A DNA stretch of 64,000 nucleotides, from assembly GCA_038150265.1 (NCBI GenBank), contig JAYOTF010000004.1, positions 32,001 through 96,000 on the forward strand, written 5' to 3'. Positions within the stretch are counted from its first letter, which is position 1. Each line of letters opens with the position of its first letter. The stretch comes from Deltaproteobacteria bacterium (lineage in GTDB: Bacteria > SAR324 > NAC60-12). Position numbers and translations under genes: made by a program. A model generated the notes under the pieces. That model was not told the origin of the DNA. It made no database searches and worked only from the letters and a program-made list of their open reading frames with translations. Positions 43,305-51,984 of the stretch are shown here, in pieces.

Positions 43305-43361
43305 GGTTCCTCCTTGGAAATCAGGTGAGAGGGGGATCTGACGATCCCGTTGGGCGGGAAA

Positions 43362-46300
43362 TCAGGTGGCTTCCGGAGCCGTGTAGCCTGCAGGCGCGAC
43401 GCCCACTTGGTTGCCGCCTTGCTCCTGAGCGAGGTCAACGGCATGCTCCACCGCCAGGATCAGGTTCTTGCGGGTCAGGGAGTCGGTCAGCGCTTCCGGA
43501 TAAGACGCCACCCCCATGGTCACGCTGACCTTGAAGTGTGTGTCCTTCCAGACAAAGTCGAAGGCCTGGATGTCATCGTGGATCTTCTGGGCAAAGTCCT
43601 GGGCGGCGATGGAGTCCATGCCCTTCATGGCCACAATCAGCTTCTCACCAAAGTAGCGGGACGGGATGTCGCTCTTCCGGCAGTGATTCTGGACCAGGGT
43701 CGCCAGCTGCTTGATGACGTAGTCGCCCCCTTCAAACCCGTGGGTGTTGTTGACGTCCCGGAAGTGGTCAGGATCCACCAGCACCAGAGACAGCGGCGTT
43801 TGCCGCTTGCGGGCTTCCTTGATCAGCCCTTCCACATGCTGGGAGAAGGACTCACGGGTGGCCAGCTGCGTCAGCTCGTCCAGCTCGATCTTCTGGCTAC
43901 CGGCATCCTGCTCGGCAGCCTCCAGCAGGTCTTCCACCGTCAGGGTTTCGCCTTCGCTGTCAGGGAAGGCGCCAACTCCGACACAGACGGACACATGGAA
44001 GGTCTTGTCCTCCCAGGTAAACTCGTGCTCATTGATGAGCCGCTTCACCTTGTTGGCGTAGCTCTGTGCCGCCTGTCGGTCGAGGTTCGGCAACGCAATG
44101 ATGACCTTCTCACCATGGTAACGGGCCGGGACGTCAGACTTGCGGGCTTGCTCCTGCACCACCTGGGCAAAGGTCCGGATCACCTCGTCGCCACACTCGA
44201 AGCCGTACTTGTCGTTCACCAGGTGGAAGTTATCCGGATCCACCACCACCACAGAGAGGGGGTTGTCGCTCTGCTGCGCCTTGGCCAGCAGGTCACCGAG
44301 GGTGCGCATGAAGTAGGCCCGGTTCGGAAGCTGGGTCAGGTCGTCGGTGTAGTTGTCAATGGCGGCATCCACCTGGTTGCCCCCCTTCTCCTGGGCCAGC
44401 TCCACGGCATTCTCAGCGGCCAGCACGAGGTTCTTGCGGGTCAGGTTGTCCTTGAGCACCTCCGGATACGAAGCCACCCCGAGGGTCACGGGCACACTGA
44501 AGTGCTCCCCACGCCAGATGAAGTCGTAGTCCATGATGTCGCGGTGGATCTGGTTCGCAAAGTCCATTGCGGCGGCGGTGTCCAGATTCCGGAGCACGAC
44601 AATGATCTTCTCGCCAAAGTAACGGGCCGGGATGTCGCTCTTGCGGGTATGCTTCTTGACCATCTTCGCCAGTTCCTGAATGACGTAGTCGCCCCCCTCA
44701 AATCCGTAGGCATTGTTGATGTTCTTGAAGCTGTCCGGATCCACCAGCACCACCGCGAGGGCATGCTGCTTCTTCTTCGCCTCCTCGGCCAGGTCGTCAA
44801 AGAGCCGGTTGAAGGTGTCGCGGGTGGCCAGCTGGGTCAGCTGATCGATCTCGATCTTCTGGGAACCGGCATCCTTTTCTGCGGCGGCAATCAGCCCCTC
44901 CACACTCAGGTTCTCCTCACCGATGTCCGGATACGACCCCACTCCGACGCTAACGGTGACCCGGAACATCTTGTCTTCCCACACAAACTCGTGCTCATTG
45001 ATCAGGCGCTGCACCTGCTGTGCGTAGTTGCGGGCGGCCTCGAGGTCGAGGTTCGGAAGGGCAATGATGACCTTTTCCCCGGTGTAGCGAGCGGGAACGT
45101 CCGCCTTGCGGGCATGGCGCTTGACGACCTCGGCAAAAGTCCGGATGACTTCATCGCCACACTCAAACCCATACTTGTCGTTGACGAGGTGGAAGTTGTC
45201 TGGATCCACCAGCACCACCGACAGAGCGCCCTTGGTGCGCTGCGAGCGGGCCACAAAGTCGCCCAGACGCCGGAGGAAGAAGTCGTGGTCGAAGAGCTTG
45301 GTGAGGTCGTCGATGTCTTCCGGACGGACCTGCTGGAAGCCCTTGATGTGGATGTTGCCCAGCAGCTTCTTGGCCAGGTTCTGGAACGGTTCAACCGTCA
45401 GACCGACCGCGACCAGGAGCACCACCTTGAAGTAGAAGGAGTCTTCGGCCAGGTCGTCCACATAGGGCTCTGTGGTCGCATCCAGAAACGCGAACAGGAC
45501 CATGACCACGACCGCAACAATGTAGTCGGAGATGTTTTCGGAGTACCCCATGCCCCGGAGCACACCGGAGATGAGGAGCAGCACCATCAGGAAGCCCAGC
45601 TGTGCCGAGTAGAACCACCACGTTTCATACCAGGGGGGCTCCACCACAAAGGTGAAGGACACCGGTTCACTCCGGGCCCCATCCTTCCGCATGGCCTTGA
45701 CGTGGAAGACGTACTCCTTCCAGGTCAGGTTCGTGTATTCGCGGAAGGGGCGTATCGACCACTTGGACCAGTCATCCTCCATCCCTTCAAGGTAGGTCTG
45801 GTACATGACGTCGCTCGGGTAGGTGTAGTCGTTCGAGGTAAAGGTAAAGCGAACGGCGTTCTGCTCATAGGGCAGGATCCGGGTCGTCAGCGGAGACTCG
45901 TTCCGGACCGCAATCCCACCGAGTTCCTTGAAGAAGTTTCCGGCAAAGAGGTTCACCTCGTCCTGGATGCTCTCCACCTGCCGAATGAGGGGGGTGAACT
46001 CCGGATCCTCTCGCACCAGCGGGGGGCGGGCCGAGACAAACATCTCCACATCTGGAGGAACCGTCGGGGGCTCTTCCAGGGGGATGAAGGCATAGACACC
46101 GGCGCTGCTCGCGAGCCAGGTGTTGTCCTTGAGGTCCTGAAAGATGCTGAAGACGTTCTGCTCCGGGATGTGCATCTTCTCCAGCACCGTCACCGTCTCT
46201 TCATTGAAGTCGAGGCGGACAATGCCCACTCGGTCCACCGCAAGCAGAAACACGCCGGGCGACACCTCGGTTCGGGCGGTCACCAGGTGGTTCTCAAAGA

Positions 46301-47078
46301 CGTCCTGATTTTCGTACTCCAAAAACGTAAAGGCTTCCCGCTCCGGAGTGCCTTCATTCGCCGGGGAGTCAAGAGCCGGGTCATACAGAAGCAGGCCCTT
46401 GTCCTGAGTCACCAGCAGCAGGCGCCCGCCCGGAAACGGCAGCATGGCGTGAGCCAGGAAGAAGTTCCCCTCCGGGACGTTGCGCAGAACCCCATCCACA
46501 ATGCGCATCAGACCATAGTCGCTGTCCAGGACGTAGAGGGTGTCGCCGATGGGGGTCACCTTGTAGAGGTAGCCCTCGGTTTCAATTTGGGTAAACACCC
46601 CATCCTTGTAGCGCAGCAGCAGCTGCTCGAACAGGAACAGCAGCTCGCCATCCGGACGCTTCAGGCTCTCCAGCAGCGGCCCCAGCAGCTCCCAGTCCTC
46701 CACCTGAATCTGGTCCTTGAGGGAGATATACGTGGTTTAGCCGTCGCTGTTCGGCGGCAGGTAGCCCAGCTCGCCGTAGCCCCCGACAAATACCCGTCCG
46801 TTGTCATCGGTGATCAGGCTGGAGCCCCCGCCATCACCAGGCATCTTGATGAGCCGCCAGGTGCTGCTGTCAAACTCATAGACCCCATTGAAGGTCGCAA
46901 AGTACATCACCCCACGGGAATCCTGAGTGGCATCCCACACCACGGGCTCCGCCTCGTAGTTGGCCACCGCGTACTGGCGCAACACGCCCACGTCCCAGCG
47001 GTCAAACGCCTGGGCGCTGCCTCCGAGCAGGAGGAGCAAGGTGATGATGATCCCGAATCCGTATCCCCAGCGCTTCAT
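43362..47078 (-). pseudogene. Membrane protein: signal peptide, propeller-like region, Y_Y_Y domain, 3 TM and four tandem degenerate GGDEF domains; interrupted by one in-frame TAA at 46737-46739 (pseudogene or sequence error)
   Basis: ORFs 46737-47078 and 43362-46703 are in the same frame, separated only by the TAA and 11 sense codons (...GYLPPNSDG*TTYISLKDQIQVEDW...). Y_Y_Y: YQTYLEG..DDWS..YTNL..EYVFHVKA, PPWYETWW. GGDEF positions read TGEKV, FGEKI, HGEKV, FGEKL. Confidence 0.8.
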
Positions 47079-50000
47079 TTACTCAATCTCAAAGGTGATG
47101 AAACGGGTGGAACGGTTGTTGACCCAGTCGTCAACCTGAATGTCGAGGGTGATGCTCCCCCGGATGGGGAGGCGGCTGATGGCCCGGCGGTACAGGCGTT
47201 TGTTGCGACCATTCAGGGAATAGAACACCTCCCGAACTCCACTTTGCGGATCCTTGGTGTCAATGTGCAGCAGGCTGCCCCGTCTGATGAAGAACTTCCC
47301 GTCACTTTCCCGGAAGGGCGGCGTGCTGCGGATCGCCACTTCCGGGTTGGTGGCATCGACCATGAAGCTCAGGGATTTCTGTTCCTCGGTGTTGCCCACC
47401 TCATCGACCGAGTAGTAGCTCAGCTCGTACCGTCCAGTTTCCTTGATGCGGATGGGCCCCTTGTACGGCTGCTGCTTGCCGCCGTTGATGCGGTAGACCG
47501 TTTGGCGGATGCCCGCTCCTCCATCAGAAGCCAGGAGGCGGATCTCGGTGTCCGCATTGAGGTACAGCTCCCCCCGGTACAGGTACTGCGTGCCCACCAC
47601 CTCATGAGACGTCACCGGAGCGGTCAGGTCGAGGTAGAAGTCCTTCGATTGCCGAGGAGTCGTGTTTCCCACCCGATCCAGCGAGCTGAAGGAGATGGTG
47701 TGCCGGCGCTCCACCTCCGGAAGCCCGAAGGTGTTGGTGTACGGCTCCATCTCGCCCGTGTCAAAGGCATAGAGGATCTTGAGGACTTCGCTGGACTTTT
47801 CCTTGGCACTGAGCGAGAAGGTCGTGGTCCGAGAGACATAGGTCCGGCCATTGTTCGCAAGGTGCTGCTCGCCCCGGACCCGCAACGAAACGGCAGGAGG
47901 CTCGTGGTCCAGCGAGAAGTTCAGCTTCCGGACCGTCTCCTTGTTCCCCACTTCATCGACCGCGTAGTAGGTCAGCAGGTGGTCGCCTTCCGGCAGGTTC
48001 CGGAGGGTCGCTGCCGTCAGCGGACGTCGATAGAGCTGCTCGGTGCCGTTGTCAAAGGAGTAGTAGATCCCGGCCACGCCCGAGAGGCCGTCGTCAGACC
48101 TCAGCTCAATGGTGGTTTGAGAGGAGAGGGTGCTTCCGAAGAAGGCGCCTTCAACCGTGTGGGTGGTCAGGGGCGGAGCCAGGTCGATGCTGAACTCCAT
48201 GGAGCGCACCTTTTCGGCATTTCCCACCTTGTCCAGGGCGTAGTAGCTGACGCGGTACACCTTCTCGCTGAAGAAGAGCTTGATCGGCTCCTCATATTCC
48301 ACAAATCCGGAGCCATCAATCGAGTAATAGAGAGCTTCCACGCCCGACTGCTTTTCCTTGCCTGCATCGCGAGCCGTCAGTTCCAGCACCAGGCCTTCAC
48401 TGTAGTACGTGGTGCCCCCTCGCTCAAACTTGTTGGCCCCCTTCAGGCGAGCCGTGGTTCGAGGATCCGTGTCGTCAATGTTGATCCGGAAGAGCCGCTT
48501 GGTGCCCGGAATGCCCACCCCAAGGGCCTGAGAGCCCCCCTGGCTGAAAAACAGCGACTGCGGATCCTTGTCGTCCGGATCATAGGCCATCTGGAAGTAC
48601 GGAGCATCCTCTTCCGGAGAAACCGAGAGGCGGAGGAAAAACTCCAGACCCGCGGCGCCCATGAGTCCATGCTCATCGCTCACAAACCAGTGCTTGCGGT
48701 GCGAGACCCGCCCGTCGGGACCAATGGAGCTTCCGGCCGCATCGTCTCCACCCGACTCGCCGGCACCCGCCCAGCGGGCCTGATCGACGCGGACCAGCAG
48801 CACCTGTGGTTTTTCCTGATTGTTGACGTTGTCAATGGAGTAGAAGCGGATGGTGTAGTCGCCGTCTTCACTCCAGCTCAGAGGCTGATCGTACGGCTGA
48901 CACTCCTGATCGTTGATGCAGATCATCGTCTTCTCCACCCGAGATTCCAGGTCGGTGGCTTCGAAGAAGATGGAGGTGCTGGGGCCAATGATGACGGTGT
49001 CATCATTCCACGACGATGACCCGGAGATGCGGTATCCGGTGGTCGGAGGGGTGCCGTCTACGTAGACCCGCCGGCGGTAGATGCCTTCGTTTTCCGCCTT
49101 GTCGGAAACACGGGCGCCAATCCAGTGCAGCCCGGCTTTTTGAGGAGGCAGAAAGGGATCGGTGTACGGAATCCACTCCGCATCATCCAGGTTGTAATCG
49201 AGGCTCTTGATCTCTGAAAATTCGTCGCGGGCCACCAACCGGATGGGCGATGAGCTGGAGACGTAAACCACGCCATCTTGCCGGTATTCGCGACCCTCCA
49301 CCTTGATCTCCAGCTCCGGAGGCTGGTTGTCATGCTGGAAGGGCACCGTCTGCCACGCCTCAGCGTTCTTGACCCGGTCCACGGCGCTGACGTAAAGCGT
49401 GTGGGCGCCCGGAGGAATGTCCTTCATTTCCAGTGGCTTCCGGTAGACCTGCTCCTTGCCTTCATCAATGCGGTAGCGGATCCGGTCGACTCCGGAGGCC
49501 CCATCTTCGGCCTGGAGCACCAGTCGTCCTGCTGTGGCAACCGCCCGGTTCAGGTGCGGTCCTTCCGGAATCACCTGGGTCACCGGAGCCGTCAGGTCGA
49601 CCACCAGGGTCAGGTCCTGAAGCGGCTCCTCGTTGCCCACATGATCGACGGAGAAGTACTTGAAGGTGTGCACCCCATCTACGGCCAGGTTGAGCTTGAG
49701 GCCTGCGGCAGGAACGTAGGGTTTGCCTTCATACGAGACCCAGGTCTTCCAGACTCCGGAAAGGGCATCGGTGGGGACCAGCTCAAACTGGGAGTTCTGC
49801 CCAATGAAGTCGCGCTCCGGGGTTTCGTAGGAGGGGGTCTCGGGGTAGTTGGGTTGGGTTTCCGGGGGGGTGCCGTCGCCAATGACCGTGTAGGCTTCCG
49901 ACTTCACCGCCAGGTTGCGGACCAGGTTTTCCCCTTCTTTCAGCGGAATGCCGCTCTGCTCCTTGGGGTCGGGAACCGAGACCGCGTCTTCCGCCTCAGG

Positions 50001-50204
50001 CTGGAGCGCCAACCCGAGGAAGACCGGCTGCCGCAACGGGGCATACGTGATGCCGTCATCGTTGACGTAAACCCGCGGCTGATGCTGAGGAGCCTGTGGC
50101 CACTGGCGTTCCTGAGCCTGCAGCGGTCCCCACGCCAACAGAGCCCCCAGCAACCCGACGGTTCTTAACCCATGCCACTTTGCCACCAAGCAAGCTCCGA
50201 ACAA
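47079..50204 (-). CDS. Large secreted protein with about 9 Ig-like (OmpL47-type) repeats
   Basis: Signal peptide; repeated D.xSG...Y..DG...Y...(Y/F)xxDxVGNxE...DxxPP units. Confidence 0.8.
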   Translation of the reverse strand: MFGACLVAKWHGLRTVGLLGALLAWGPLQAQERQWPQAPQHQPRVYVNDDGITYAPLRQPVFLGLALQPEAEDAVSVPDPKEQSGIPLKEGENLVRNLAVKSEAYTVIGDGTPPETQPNYPETPSYETPERDFIGQNSQFELVPTDALSGVWKTWVSYEGKPYVPAAGLKLNLAVDGVHTFKYFSVDHVGNEEPLQDLTLVVDLTAPVTQVIPEGPHLNRAVATAGRLVLQAEDGASGVDRIRYRIDEGKEQVYRKPLEMKDIPPGAHTLYVSAVDRVKNAEAWQTVPFQHDNQPPELEIKVEGREYRQDGVVYVSSSSPIRLVARDEFSEIKSLDYNLDDAEWIPYTDPFLPPQKAGLHWIGARVSDKAENEGIYRRRVYVDGTPPTTGYRISGSSSWNDDTVIIGPSTSIFFEATDLESRVEKTMICINDQECQPYDQPLSWSEDGDYTIRFYSIDNVNNQEKPQVLLVRVDQARWAGAGESGGDDAAGSSIGPDGRVSHRKHWFVSDEHGLMGAAGLEFFLRLSVSPEEDAPYFQMAYDPDDKDPQSLFFSQGGSQALGVGIPGTKRLFRINIDDTDPRTTARLKGANKFERGGTTYYSEGLVLELTARDAGKEKQSGVEALYYSIDGSGFVEYEEPIKLFFSEKVYRVSYYALDKVGNAEKVRSMEFSIDLAPPLTTHTVEGAFFGSTLSSQTTIELRSDDGLSGVAGIYYSFDNGTEQLYRRPLTAATLRNLPEGDHLLTYYAVDEVGNKETVRKLNFSLDHEPPAVSLRVRGEQHLANNGRTYVSRTTTFSLSAKEKSSEVLKILYAFDTGEMEPYTNTFGLPEVERRHTISFSSLDRVGNTTPRQSKDFYLDLTAPVTSHEVVGTQYLYRGELYLNADTEIRLLASDGGAGIRQTVYRINGGKQQPYKGPIRIKETGRYELSYYSVDEVGNTEEQKSLSFMVDATNPEVAIRSTPPFRESDGKFFIRRGSLLHIDTKDPQSGVREVFYSLNGRNKRLYRRAISRLPIRGSITLDIQVDDWVNNRSTRFITFEIE

Positions 50205-50220
50205 CCTGAGTTTGATCTAT

Positions 50221-51984
50221 CTATTGCTGAGGAACAATCCGGAATTCAGTTACCTGAGTAGCCTGATTCTGAACGTTGTCTTCTGCCCGCACCGAAATCC
50301 GGAAGCGCCCCGGCTTGTCAAAGAACAGGGTTTCTCCGTATGCCTTGTAAGGCTCATCATTGAGGGCAAATTCCAGCTTCCGGACGTTGGCCGAGTTATC
50401 GGTTGAGGTCAGGTACAGCAGGGTGTTGATGGGGAAGATCTTCACGTCCACGCCGTCTTCCTTCTCCACACGAAGGGGATCAATGCTGAAGATGGTCAGG
50501 ATCTGCGGCGGCGTGTTGTCCACAATCAGGAACAGCGGAGAAGACACCTCCCGGTTGTTGACCCGGTCAATGGACCAGTAGCTGAACATGTACTGGCCTT
50601 CTACCGGAATGACAATGTCCTGCTCATAGGTGGTTTCCGCCTCGTTGCCCAGTCGGTAGCTGGTGGTCTGCACCCCTGCCAGGTCGTCCTGAGCGCTCAG
50701 GCGCACCTTCGTGTTGCCAGTCAGCCACACGGCGCCAATGCCCTGACTGAAGTGCGGCCCCAGGAACTCGTGAGACGACTTCGGAGGCATCGCATCCATG
50801 ACCACATCCAGCGTTTTGGGCTCCGACTCGTTCCCCAGGCGGTCTCGGCTCTTGAAGATGACCTTCATCTCGCCAGGCGCCACCCGAGGAATGAACGGGG
50901 TCACGTACTCGCTGTAAGGCAGCTCGTTGATGCGGTACTGAATGGACTGCGGCTGAGACCGGAGGTCCGTTGCATCCAGCTGCACCCGGGTCCGTGGAGA
51001 AACGTACTGCCGGTCGTTGACCAGGGCCACATCGCCAATGAGGGTGGCCTCGACTTCCGGAGCGGTCCGGTCCAGCTCGAAGCGGTACTCGCGGGCCACT
51101 TCCACGTTGTCCACCTGGTCAATGGCAAAGTAGTGCAGCACCCGCTCCCCATCCGGAAGGTCCTTGACGGCAATGCCGGTTTCCGGATTGTACTGGCGGG
51201 TGGTGCTTTCGTTATCGAAGCGGTAGCGGATTTCCCGAACCCCCGAAAGCTGGTCACCACTGGTGAGCAGGATCACACTCTGCTGCGAGAGGATGTCGCC
51301 CAAAAAGTTGTTGGTCACGGTGTGTGTGGTCGTCGGTGGGGTCAGGTCCACCGTAAACAGCACCTCCACCGGTTTGCTGGCGTATCCCACGTGGTCCACG
51401 GCGTAGTGACGCACCAGGTAGGTTTTTTCCTGATTCAGATTCAGCGGATTTTCATAAACGCCGTACGGCACCCCATCGACAGAAATGTACGCGTCTTCAA
51501 TTCCGGAGAGGTCGTCCACCGAACGCAGCGTGCCGATCAGTCCTCGCCCGTAGTAGGTCATCTTCGAGGATTTGTAGATTGGAGCATCCGTGAGGTTCAG
51601 GTTGGTCTCCGGAGGCTGGCCATCGGCAATGAACTTGTACAGCGTCTCTTCTTCTGTCAGGTAGTTGACCCAGCGGATGAACTGCCGCCCCGGAATTTCC
51701 AGGCGGATGCCTTCCGTTTGCCGCTCCTGCTTGCCCCCTTCAGCCAATTCCTGAATCGTTTGCAGCAAGAACGTCTGAGCGCCTTCTTCCGGAGACGAGG
51801 CCAGCCGAATCCACACCGGCTTGTCCATGGGCCAGTAGACCATTTTGGAGCTGCTGGTGTACACCTTGAGCTCATGCTTCAGCGGTACGGGAACCGGCTG
51901 CGCCCACAGGCTTCCGGCGCCCAGCAAGGCAACCAGGAGCCCTAAATTGATCTGCAAGAAAAGAAGCGCGCCACGGTTAAACAT
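50221..51984 (-). CDS. Secreted protein with about 5 Ig-like (OmpL47-type) repeats, paralogous to the downstream gene
   Basis: Signal peptide ending SLWA; units HYAVDHVG, FAIDQVDN, SRDRLGN, SIDRVNN, AEDNVQN. Confidence 0.8.
   Translation of the reverse strand: MFNRGALLFLQINLGLLVALLGAGSLWAQPVPVPLKHELKVYTSSSKMVYWPMDKPVWIRLASSPEEGAQTFLLQTIQELAEGGKQERQTEGIRLEIPGRQFIRWVNYLTEEETLYKFIADGQPPETNLNLTDAPIYKSSKMTYYGRGLIGTLRSVDDLSGIEDAYISVDGVPYGVYENPLNLNQEKTYLVRHYAVDHVGYASKPVEVLFTVDLTPPTTTHTVTNNFLGDILSQQSVILLTSGDQLSGVREIRYRFDNESTTRQYNPETGIAVKDLPDGERVLHYFAIDQVDNVEVAREYRFELDRTAPEVEATLIGDVALVNDRQYVSPRTRVQLDATDLRSQPQSIQYRINELPYSEYVTPFIPRVAPGEMKVIFKSRDRLGNESEPKTLDVVMDAMPPKSSHEFLGPHFSQGIGAVWLTGNTKVRLSAQDDLAGVQTTSYRLGNEAETTYEQDIVIPVEGQYMFSYWSIDRVNNREVSSPLFLIVDNTPPQILTIFSIDPLRVEKEDGVDVKIFPINTLLYLTSTDNSANVRKLEFALNDEPYKAYGETLFFDKPGRFRISVRAEDNVQNQATQVTEFRIVPQQ

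Follow-up and report, generated by a model that had tools for sequence, protein, structure and literature searches.

PelD-type I-site receptors are proteins with multiple transmembrane (TM) helices that carry a degenerate GGDEF domain with an intact RxxD motif. Hybrid two-component sensors of Bacteroides, among them BT4663, BT4673 and BT3049, join propellers to a Y_Y_Y domain in a large ectodomain, and in the Pseudomonas SiaABCD and YfiBNR systems a membrane signalling protein is co-encoded with extracytoplasmic or accessory partners. YfiN and YfiR are outlined in PMC5231407, as is LapD of the Pseudomonas LapD-LapG-LapA system, an inner-membrane protein with a periplasmic domain and dead domains for cyclic di-GMP (c-di-GMP) that controls extracytoplasmic partners. 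The Leptospira protein OmpL47 (LIC13050), built of repeats of family NF047446 with signal-peptidase-I type export, partitions into the aqueous phase, yet it is reported to be surface-exposed (PMC2698987). Here we describe a trio of genes in a 64,000-nucleotide stretch of DNA, hereafter the window, from a Deltaproteobacteria bacterium of the SAR324 lineage (assembly GCA_038150265.1, hereafter G000; contig JAYOTF010000004.1, positions 32,001 to 96,000). The trio encodes a short and a long protein of immunoglobulin (Ig)-like repeats (ig1 and ig2) and a membrane protein with one beta-propeller, a Y_Y_Y domain, three TM helices and a tail of four degenerate GGDEF domains (Table 1). We found that the conserved unit is the short Ig-repeat gene, the long Ig-repeat gene and a gene for a one-propeller/Y_Y_Y/three-TM protein.

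On our best reading, the trio works partly like LapD or YfiBNR and is a member of neither. A first-pass annotation, made from the letters of this DNA, had set the membrane protein beside LapD and PelD, and the likeness did not extend to membership. Like LapD, it would be an inner-membrane protein with dead c-di-GMP domains that controls partners outside the cytoplasm, but a Pfam parse showed no HAMP or EAL domain, the score against NF045673 was 73 bits versus a cut-off of 1020, and a LapG-type protease (PF06035) was not found in G000 by a search whose control matched in 1/14. Moreover, the propeller, Y_Y_Y domain and three TM helices replace the LapD periplasmic output domain, and most relatives lack the tail. 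The intact RxxD motif of PelD-type receptors is present in 4/4 copies in the window and 14/15 across the family. The Pfam parse gave no GAF domain, however, PelG was not found in G000 (control matched in 1/14), and the trio locus, with its large periplasmic head and Ig partners, has no polysaccharide genes and unrelated neighbors. The best sequence and fold matches of the ectodomain were the Bacteroides hybrid sensors, but here one propeller of ∼310 residues stands against an ectodomain of 740 to 790 residues, there are three TM helices in place of a single one, and kinase, receiver and AraC domains are absent. YfiR-like and SiaC genes adjoin solitary relatives of ig1, whereas none of the YfiBNR or SiaABCD partner genes lies in the trio locus and the cyclase of those systems is active. 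Unlike OmpL47, both Ig proteins are longer and carry N-domains; ig1 scores below the OmpL47 equivalog cut-off, and ig2 is three times as long as OmpL47. In agreement with the first-pass annotation, which knew of no such architecture, we found no description of the trio in the literature searched, outside of which lie most subscription papers and all supplements. Within that literature, no paper combined Y_Y_Y, GGDEF and propeller, papers on SAR324 with c-di-GMP were unrelated, as were the listed matches to "triple tyrosine motif," and almost all OmpL47 papers concerned Leptospira.

Conserved synteny was the main check proposed in the first-pass annotation, and it holds strongly, well beyond the lineage. 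The membrane gene occurs in 8 of 88 genomes of the SAR324 phylum (5 of 43 genera, with a patchy distribution within genera) and follows ig1 and ig2 in all eight carriers, with the membrane gene itself divided between two contigs in G001 and G005. A scan with an ig2 alignment confirmed 113 stretches, from which 76 loci were kept. By our own sorting, a long ig2 is present in 18 of these, 16 of which also have the propeller gene; the remaining 2 reach a contig edge. Ten of those 16 loci belong, by record title, to Acidobacteriota, Balneolota, Calditrichota and Latescibacterota. In a reverse scan, the three-helix block was found in 22/39 metagenome loci; Ig genes accompany it in 16 of these 22, and the other 6 run off the start of contigs of 1.7 to 4.4 kb. 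The 16 loci are not independent, because 7 come from one species, leaving ∼8 distinct versions. One locus (L121) has ig2 without ig1 in the available DNA. Three of the 39 loci encode longer propeller/Y_Y_Y proteins that have a GGDEF domain, one of them with GGEEF, and lack the three-helix block; propeller/Y_Y_Y proteins with GGDEF are not rare as such. In an Acidobacteriaceae record (L040:7572-14638), all three genes are split into overlapping frames, as expected from long-read indel errors.

TABLE 1 Features of the trio locus, by position in the window. dN/dS, ratio of nonsynonymous to synonymous substitution rates, was taken against the sister species G002.
Feature	Position	Strand	Description	dN/dS
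ig1, short Ig-repeat gene	50221..51984	-	587 residues; leader peptide, N-domain, 5 OmpL47-type repeats	0.09
ig2, long Ig-repeat gene	47079..50204	-	1041 residues, TTG start; leader, N-domain and 4 repeats, linker, second N-domain and 5 repeats	0.08
Membrane gene	43362..47078	-	1238 codons; leader, one beta-propeller, Y_Y_Y/Ig, three TM helices, four degenerate GGDEF	0.08
Single beta-propeller	46074..47006	-	Residues ∼25-335; Z ∼22 to single propellers	
In-frame TAA	46737..46739	-	Codon 114 of membrane gene; splits the gene in this assembly	
Y_Y_Y/Ig-like domain	45639..46001	-	Residues ∼360-480; PF07495 E 4e-5, below curated cut-off; Bacteroides hybrid two-component sensor ectodomains E 6e-9	
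Three-helix membrane block	45339..45638	-	Residues ∼481-580; conserved in 106 of top 150 relatives	
GGDEF D1	44877..45314	-	RKAD / TGEKV; C-terminus shortened	0.03
GGDEF D2	44373..44849	-	RKSD / FGEKI	0.10
GGDEF D3	43905..44351	-	RKSD / HGEKV; copy of D1 (69% identical)	0.12
GGDEF D4	43407..43883	-	RKSD / FGEKL; copy of D2 (60% identical)	0.28

Within the window, the genes are co-oriented and tightly spaced as first described: 16 bases separate ig1 from ig2, and the TAA of ig2 directly abuts the ATG of the membrane gene. An RNA run (X17) yielded a single 151-base contig, at depth 2, that spans the junction between ig2 and the membrane gene at 47079. The proposal of one operon thus has the spacing behind it, together with this contig, which hints at co-transcription and does not establish a single transcript. 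The run contains 0.08 of the words and covers 4/30 bins, so that it is uninformative on expression level. A promoter and terminator scan, which returned 1 and 6 sites versus 1.6 and 8.6 in shuffles, was uninformative. An antisense open frame of 1889 codons (43350-49019, plus strand) overlies the membrane gene and part of ig2 and is probably a shadow of codon bias.

The membrane protein was modeled from residues 25 to 760 of the G002 orthologue, which gave a mean predicted local distance difference test score of 89 and matches to Bacteroides sensor ectodomains and to GGDEF domains. With an exported head followed by three helices, the tail would lie in the cytoplasm. The three-helix block itself has no name in Pfam, in PDB sequences, where a search matched the Y_Y_Y part alone, or in the Atlas, where it retrieved one unnamed cluster at a low score of 0.79. 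A wide fold search was dominated by the propeller and GGDEF domains and barely probed the helices.

The Ig proteins had been called secreted Ig-repeat proteins, and the repeats are borne out. The family of OmpL47-type repeats, NF047446, matches five stretches of ig1 and nine of ig2 (213 and 409 bits versus a cut-off of 40). Both halves of ig2 match ig1 at 27 to 33% identity, and ig2 amounts to a tandem pair of ig1-like units, each with its repeats placed after an N-domain. In the ig2 model, a string of beta-rich domains has as its top structural matches Ig-like chains, the GhpA grappling hook among them, at low overall TM-scores; the predicted fold is thus one of Ig-like domains and not the membrane barrel suggested by the OmpL47 family name. 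For secretion, the sole sign is an N-terminal hydrophobic leader, read by eye. Among 85 Ig relatives of at least 540 residues, a loose lipobox pattern occurs in 4, none convincing, and no conserved lipobox or C-terminal secretion tail was seen, full-length relatives finishing on their last repeat strand. No outer-membrane or cell-wall anchor was seen in the rods, and a genome search for the type IX secretion domain PF18962 matched in no control and was hence uninformative. The Ig proteins have the look of soluble, exported proteins. Searching for homologues with the C-terminal half of ig2 gave 37 matches, mostly unrelated repeat proteins. Two more ig1 paralogues lie in G000 without a membrane gene, on C29 (L025:10041-11840) and C37 (L026:4231-6048); a gene for an FGE-sulfatase domain follows the latter, as it does in G002 (L147), and likewise follows the trio in L114.

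The first-pass annotation had included the fourfold GGDEF tail in its description of the system; that this tail is the defining trait is an idea we rejected. As relatives, we took the best 150 matches of a Y_Y_Y plus TM profile in 1.84 billion representatives, 106 of which cover most of the three-helix block. After the block, 100 of the 106 have at most 88 residues (some of these tail-less representatives may be cut fragments), 3 have GGDEF, 1 has MshEN-like repeats, and 2 (P0057 and P0090) have an unnamed tail of ∼200 residues. Seven whole membrane genes in the loci finish 15 to 35 residues past the block. Five relatives have one GGDEF, and four copies are limited to G000 and G002. In a midpoint-rooted tree of 65 Y_Y_Y plus TM regions, the eight GGDEF-tailed rows form one clade (100/99) among tail-less rows, and the degenerate GGDEF was fused to the membrane protein once. 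Because D1 pairs with D3 and D2 with D4, the array grew from one copy to two and then doubled as a pair, the four copies being a recent duplication seen in two sister species. Since most relatives are tail-less, five have one GGDEF and four copies are found in G000 and G002 only, c-di-GMP control would be a lineage-specific addition, in one marine and aquatic group, to an older envelope module. A larger family of ∼830 to 1200 residues (P0054-P0150) has a longer propeller region, a Y_Y_Y domain, the same three-helix block and no cytoplasmic domain.

In one related genome, G009 (L020:8496-8957), five MshEN/PilF-like repeats stand in place of the GGDEF tail and match PilF GSPII (E 6.8e-10) and MshE (E 0.023). 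These repeats begin KIG, KTG, PVE, PIG and PIG and have short spacers, the reference pattern for MshEN/GSPII being tandem 24-residue (R/K/L)LG...LxxxLxxQ motifs. Pfam reports DUF4388 alone, and the Atlas leads are all below 0.9. c-di-GMP is bound by the MshEN motif (PMC5013675), and binding persists in PilF domains whose motifs begin with Lys, Leu or Pro (PMC11731258). The occurrence of two unrelated c-di-GMP-type modules at the same site would be the best argument for c-di-GMP control, an argument that comes from one genome.

Each of D1 to D4 has an RxxD motif five residues upstream of the position of the canonical GG(D/E)EF motif, which is absent: all four copies read x-G-E-K. All four domains are under purifying selection. 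To these we compared further degenerate copies, for a total of 15 from nine proteins, which are not independent (the two sister species contribute eight, and two of the singles are near twins). Fourteen of the 15 read x-G-E-K and the other x-D-E-K, with Lys at position 4 throughout. With the I-site defined as in a bioRxiv preprint (10.64898/2026.08.21.746235), RxxD is kept in 14/15. Every copy has a hydrophobic residue in place of the His that precedes the guanine-binding Asp, and the second phosphate-binding Arg is missing from all eight G000 and G002 copies; G021, G005 and G011 retain both phosphate-binding basic residues. Guanine- and metal-binding positions, which we take to be D327, N335, D344 and E370 of PleD, are kept in 14 to 15 of the 15 copies. 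Since Ala at motif position 4 abolishes the activity of VCA0965 (PMC3974145), the tail domains are likely but not proven to be catalytically inactive; non-canonical GGDEF motifs can be active, according to the same source. The earlier claim that the output is not an active cyclase is to be read at that strength.

The rest of the c-di-GMP circuit in G000 (98% complete) is small. It consists of one canonical GGEEF cyclase with a cNMP-binding domain and, ∼6 kb away, one GAF/HD-GYP protein (L142; G000:C6:21781-31389). An EAL search found none in G000 (control matched in 6/14), and two PilZ-like pattern matches are unconfirmed. Because the membrane protein is the sole GGDEF protein besides the single cyclase, it is a prime candidate effector of this minimal circuit, in a group that is uncultured.

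No conserved partner output gene lies beside the trio among the loci examined, where 25 selected neighbor proteins were scanned with Pfam. Three kinds of neighbor recur, and none is general. A periplasmic-binding-protein/MscS channel gene adjoins the trio in three phyla (L031:10206-14048, with a cNMP-binding domain; L033:2136-4970; L068:13322-16324), two tandem EF-hand genes lie between a tail-less membrane gene and ig1 in Balneola-type loci (L062:5941-7078, L075:6279-7402, L117:2237-3376), and a DUF481 gene adjoins the membrane gene in three loci (L033:5158-5949, L113:1749-2735, L115:2596-3426).

We propose that the three proteins form a single trans-envelope complex, that its membrane subunit lacks an enzyme output, and that c-di-GMP control was added in SAR324 via the dead GGDEF tail. 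This is a tentative reading that falls just short of what we would call probable. The Ig-repeat rods would be exported, remain in the periplasm or loosely bound at the surface, and attach to the inner-membrane protein at its propeller/Y_Y_Y head. Because the ancestral membrane protein ends right past its third helix, its core job would be in the envelope or membrane, where it may act as an anchor or co-receptor working via the three-helix block. A dead GGDEF with a kept I-site would then have been fused once in SAR324, the relative G009 gaining MshEN-like repeats instead. c-di-GMP from the single canonical cyclase would bind the tails and cross-link or reorient them, and would tune the state of the membrane block and its Ig partners from the inside out, as with LapD. 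The four copies, reached from one via two, may add avidity and not a new function. A c-di-GMP-sensing tail gains support from the kept I-sites, the MshEN/PilF-like relative and the small but complete c-di-GMP circuit of the genome.

Several observations weigh against this proposal. Binding of c-di-GMP is read from motifs, and these are imperfect: the third I-site arginine (PleD R390) gives way to Gln in D1 and D2 and to Lys in D3 and D4, G013 retains its domain without RxxD, and a metagenome copy of the G013 type lacks the Glu as well. G009 falls outside the GGDEF clade at 98/73, which is not firm, and two of its five repeats lack the motif residues. The RNA evidence is one depth-2 contig, and the window's own membrane gene carries a stop. 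As for the inside-out direction put forward in the first-pass annotation, the neighbors of solitary ig1 genes point, if anything, the other way. In 31 of 58 loci with ig1 only, mostly from Bacteroidota (for example, L034, L037, L039, L043 and L046), a gene for a receptor with a signal peptide, TPRs and one TM helix lies within 1 kb, and a YfiR-like gene adjoins ig1 in 5/58. Of the TPR receptors scanned, 22/23 have a SpoIIE, kinase or cyclase (adenylate cyclase) output, 22/23 have a predicted membrane helix, and SiaC is often present in these loci. These neighbors suggest a general role for ig1-type proteins as partners of membrane receptors, and they favor outside-in signaling for the family; solitary ig1, TPR receptor and SiaC may form an undescribed Sia-like system with an Ig-repeat partner. 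For the trio, the corresponding explanation is an outside-in co-receptor, in which rods and propeller sense an envelope or external cue that the membrane protein relays, through its helices or its tail, to a partner with a gene of its own; the dead GGDEF would then serve for docking (of the single active cyclase, for example) or would sense GTP/(p)ppGpp, and would not mainly be a c-di-GMP switch. That the nearest solved relatives of the ectodomain are outside-in Bacteroides sensors, and that the guanine- and metal-binding positions are so well kept, speaks for it. We nonetheless consider it doubtful, though a serious alternative, given that no partner output gene is conserved beside the trio and that it leaves both the kept RxxD and the second c-di-GMP-type module, at the same place in G009, unexplained. 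A different explanation is that the x-G-E-K domain is a non-canonical active enzyme under the control of the ectodomain, as in YfiN, and that it acts as a weak cyclase or makes some other product. The Lys at position 4 in 15/15 copies looks like selection and not decay, three proteins keep both phosphate-binding residues, and VCA0965 tolerates Met and His at motif position 1 (PMC3974145). Such an enzyme is improbable to us, however, in view of the uniform loss of the His, the missing Arg in eight copies with D1 and D3 shortened, and the tail-less relatives, which need no enzyme.

The recurrent neighbors fit a tethered mechanical or ion-flux sensor, whose rods span the periplasm and pull on a pore-forming or gating three-helix protein, with c-di-GMP tails that modulate gating. 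Channel genes beside the trio at three loci in three phyla, the EF-hand pairs and rods built as chains of five and nine repeats agree with this picture. It is quite unlikely, in that such neighbors are confined to a minority of loci and vary from lineage to lineage, the rods show no anchor, and no channel fold is among the matches listed, from a search in which the TM block was barely probed. Finally, the stop raises the question of whether the locus still functions. The first-pass annotation gave the architecture of the membrane protein correctly (propeller, Y_Y_Y, three TM helices and four GGDEF domains) and overlooked the in-frame TAA at codon 114. We compared the window with 4 of 22 listed sequencing runs, three of DNA, from three studies, and one of RNA. 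Plus-strand position 46739 is C in 3/3 DNA runs (one contig per run, at full local depth), which restores a Glu codon, and the G002 orthologue (1240 residues, 88% identical) is an open frame with Glu at the same site. The stop is therefore private to this assembly among the compared data. Two further letters, at 46728 and 46757, are also private to the window, so that all three DNA runs disagree with the window at three letters within 30 bases, and the likeliest origin of the stop is an error in the local consensus or a rare allele. Read-through or recoding was rejected, as the codon in question is TAA and the runs have a sense codon in its place. A fresh pseudogene in a locus that no longer functions would agree with the TAA itself and with the patchiness of the module even within genera; the window allele, found in none of the compared runs, may be genuine but rare and belong to a strain outside those sampled, since run contigs drop rare variants. 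The sense codon in the DNA runs, the cluster of private letters, which looks like a consensus error, and the low dN/dS of the whole gene make us give this explanation little credence.

A wider version of our proposal would make the trio a multi-phylum envelope machine of Ig rods and a propeller/Y_Y_Y protein, whose sole conserved output is the unnamed three-helix block, acting as a co-receptor or gate for membrane partners. c-di-GMP control would then have been grafted on two separate times in SAR324, through a dead GGDEF with an invariant x-G-E-K of its own in one case and through MshEN-like repeats in the other. The short Ig protein would serve TPR and propeller receptors, in Bacteroidota and other groups, as a general extracytoplasmic partner. 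We regard this version as speculative and rather unlikely to hold in full. The trio itself defines a conserved three-gene envelope module absent from the literature searched, and it assigns to OmpL47-type repeat proteins the genomic role of membrane-receptor partners, not of lone adhesins or barrels. Because the same membrane protein exists tail-less, with one or four dead GGDEF domains, or with MshEN-like repeats, a direct test of adding a second-messenger input to an existing envelope complex would be possible, and a cultured carrier, the Balneola genome of L062, makes the core of the trio testable.

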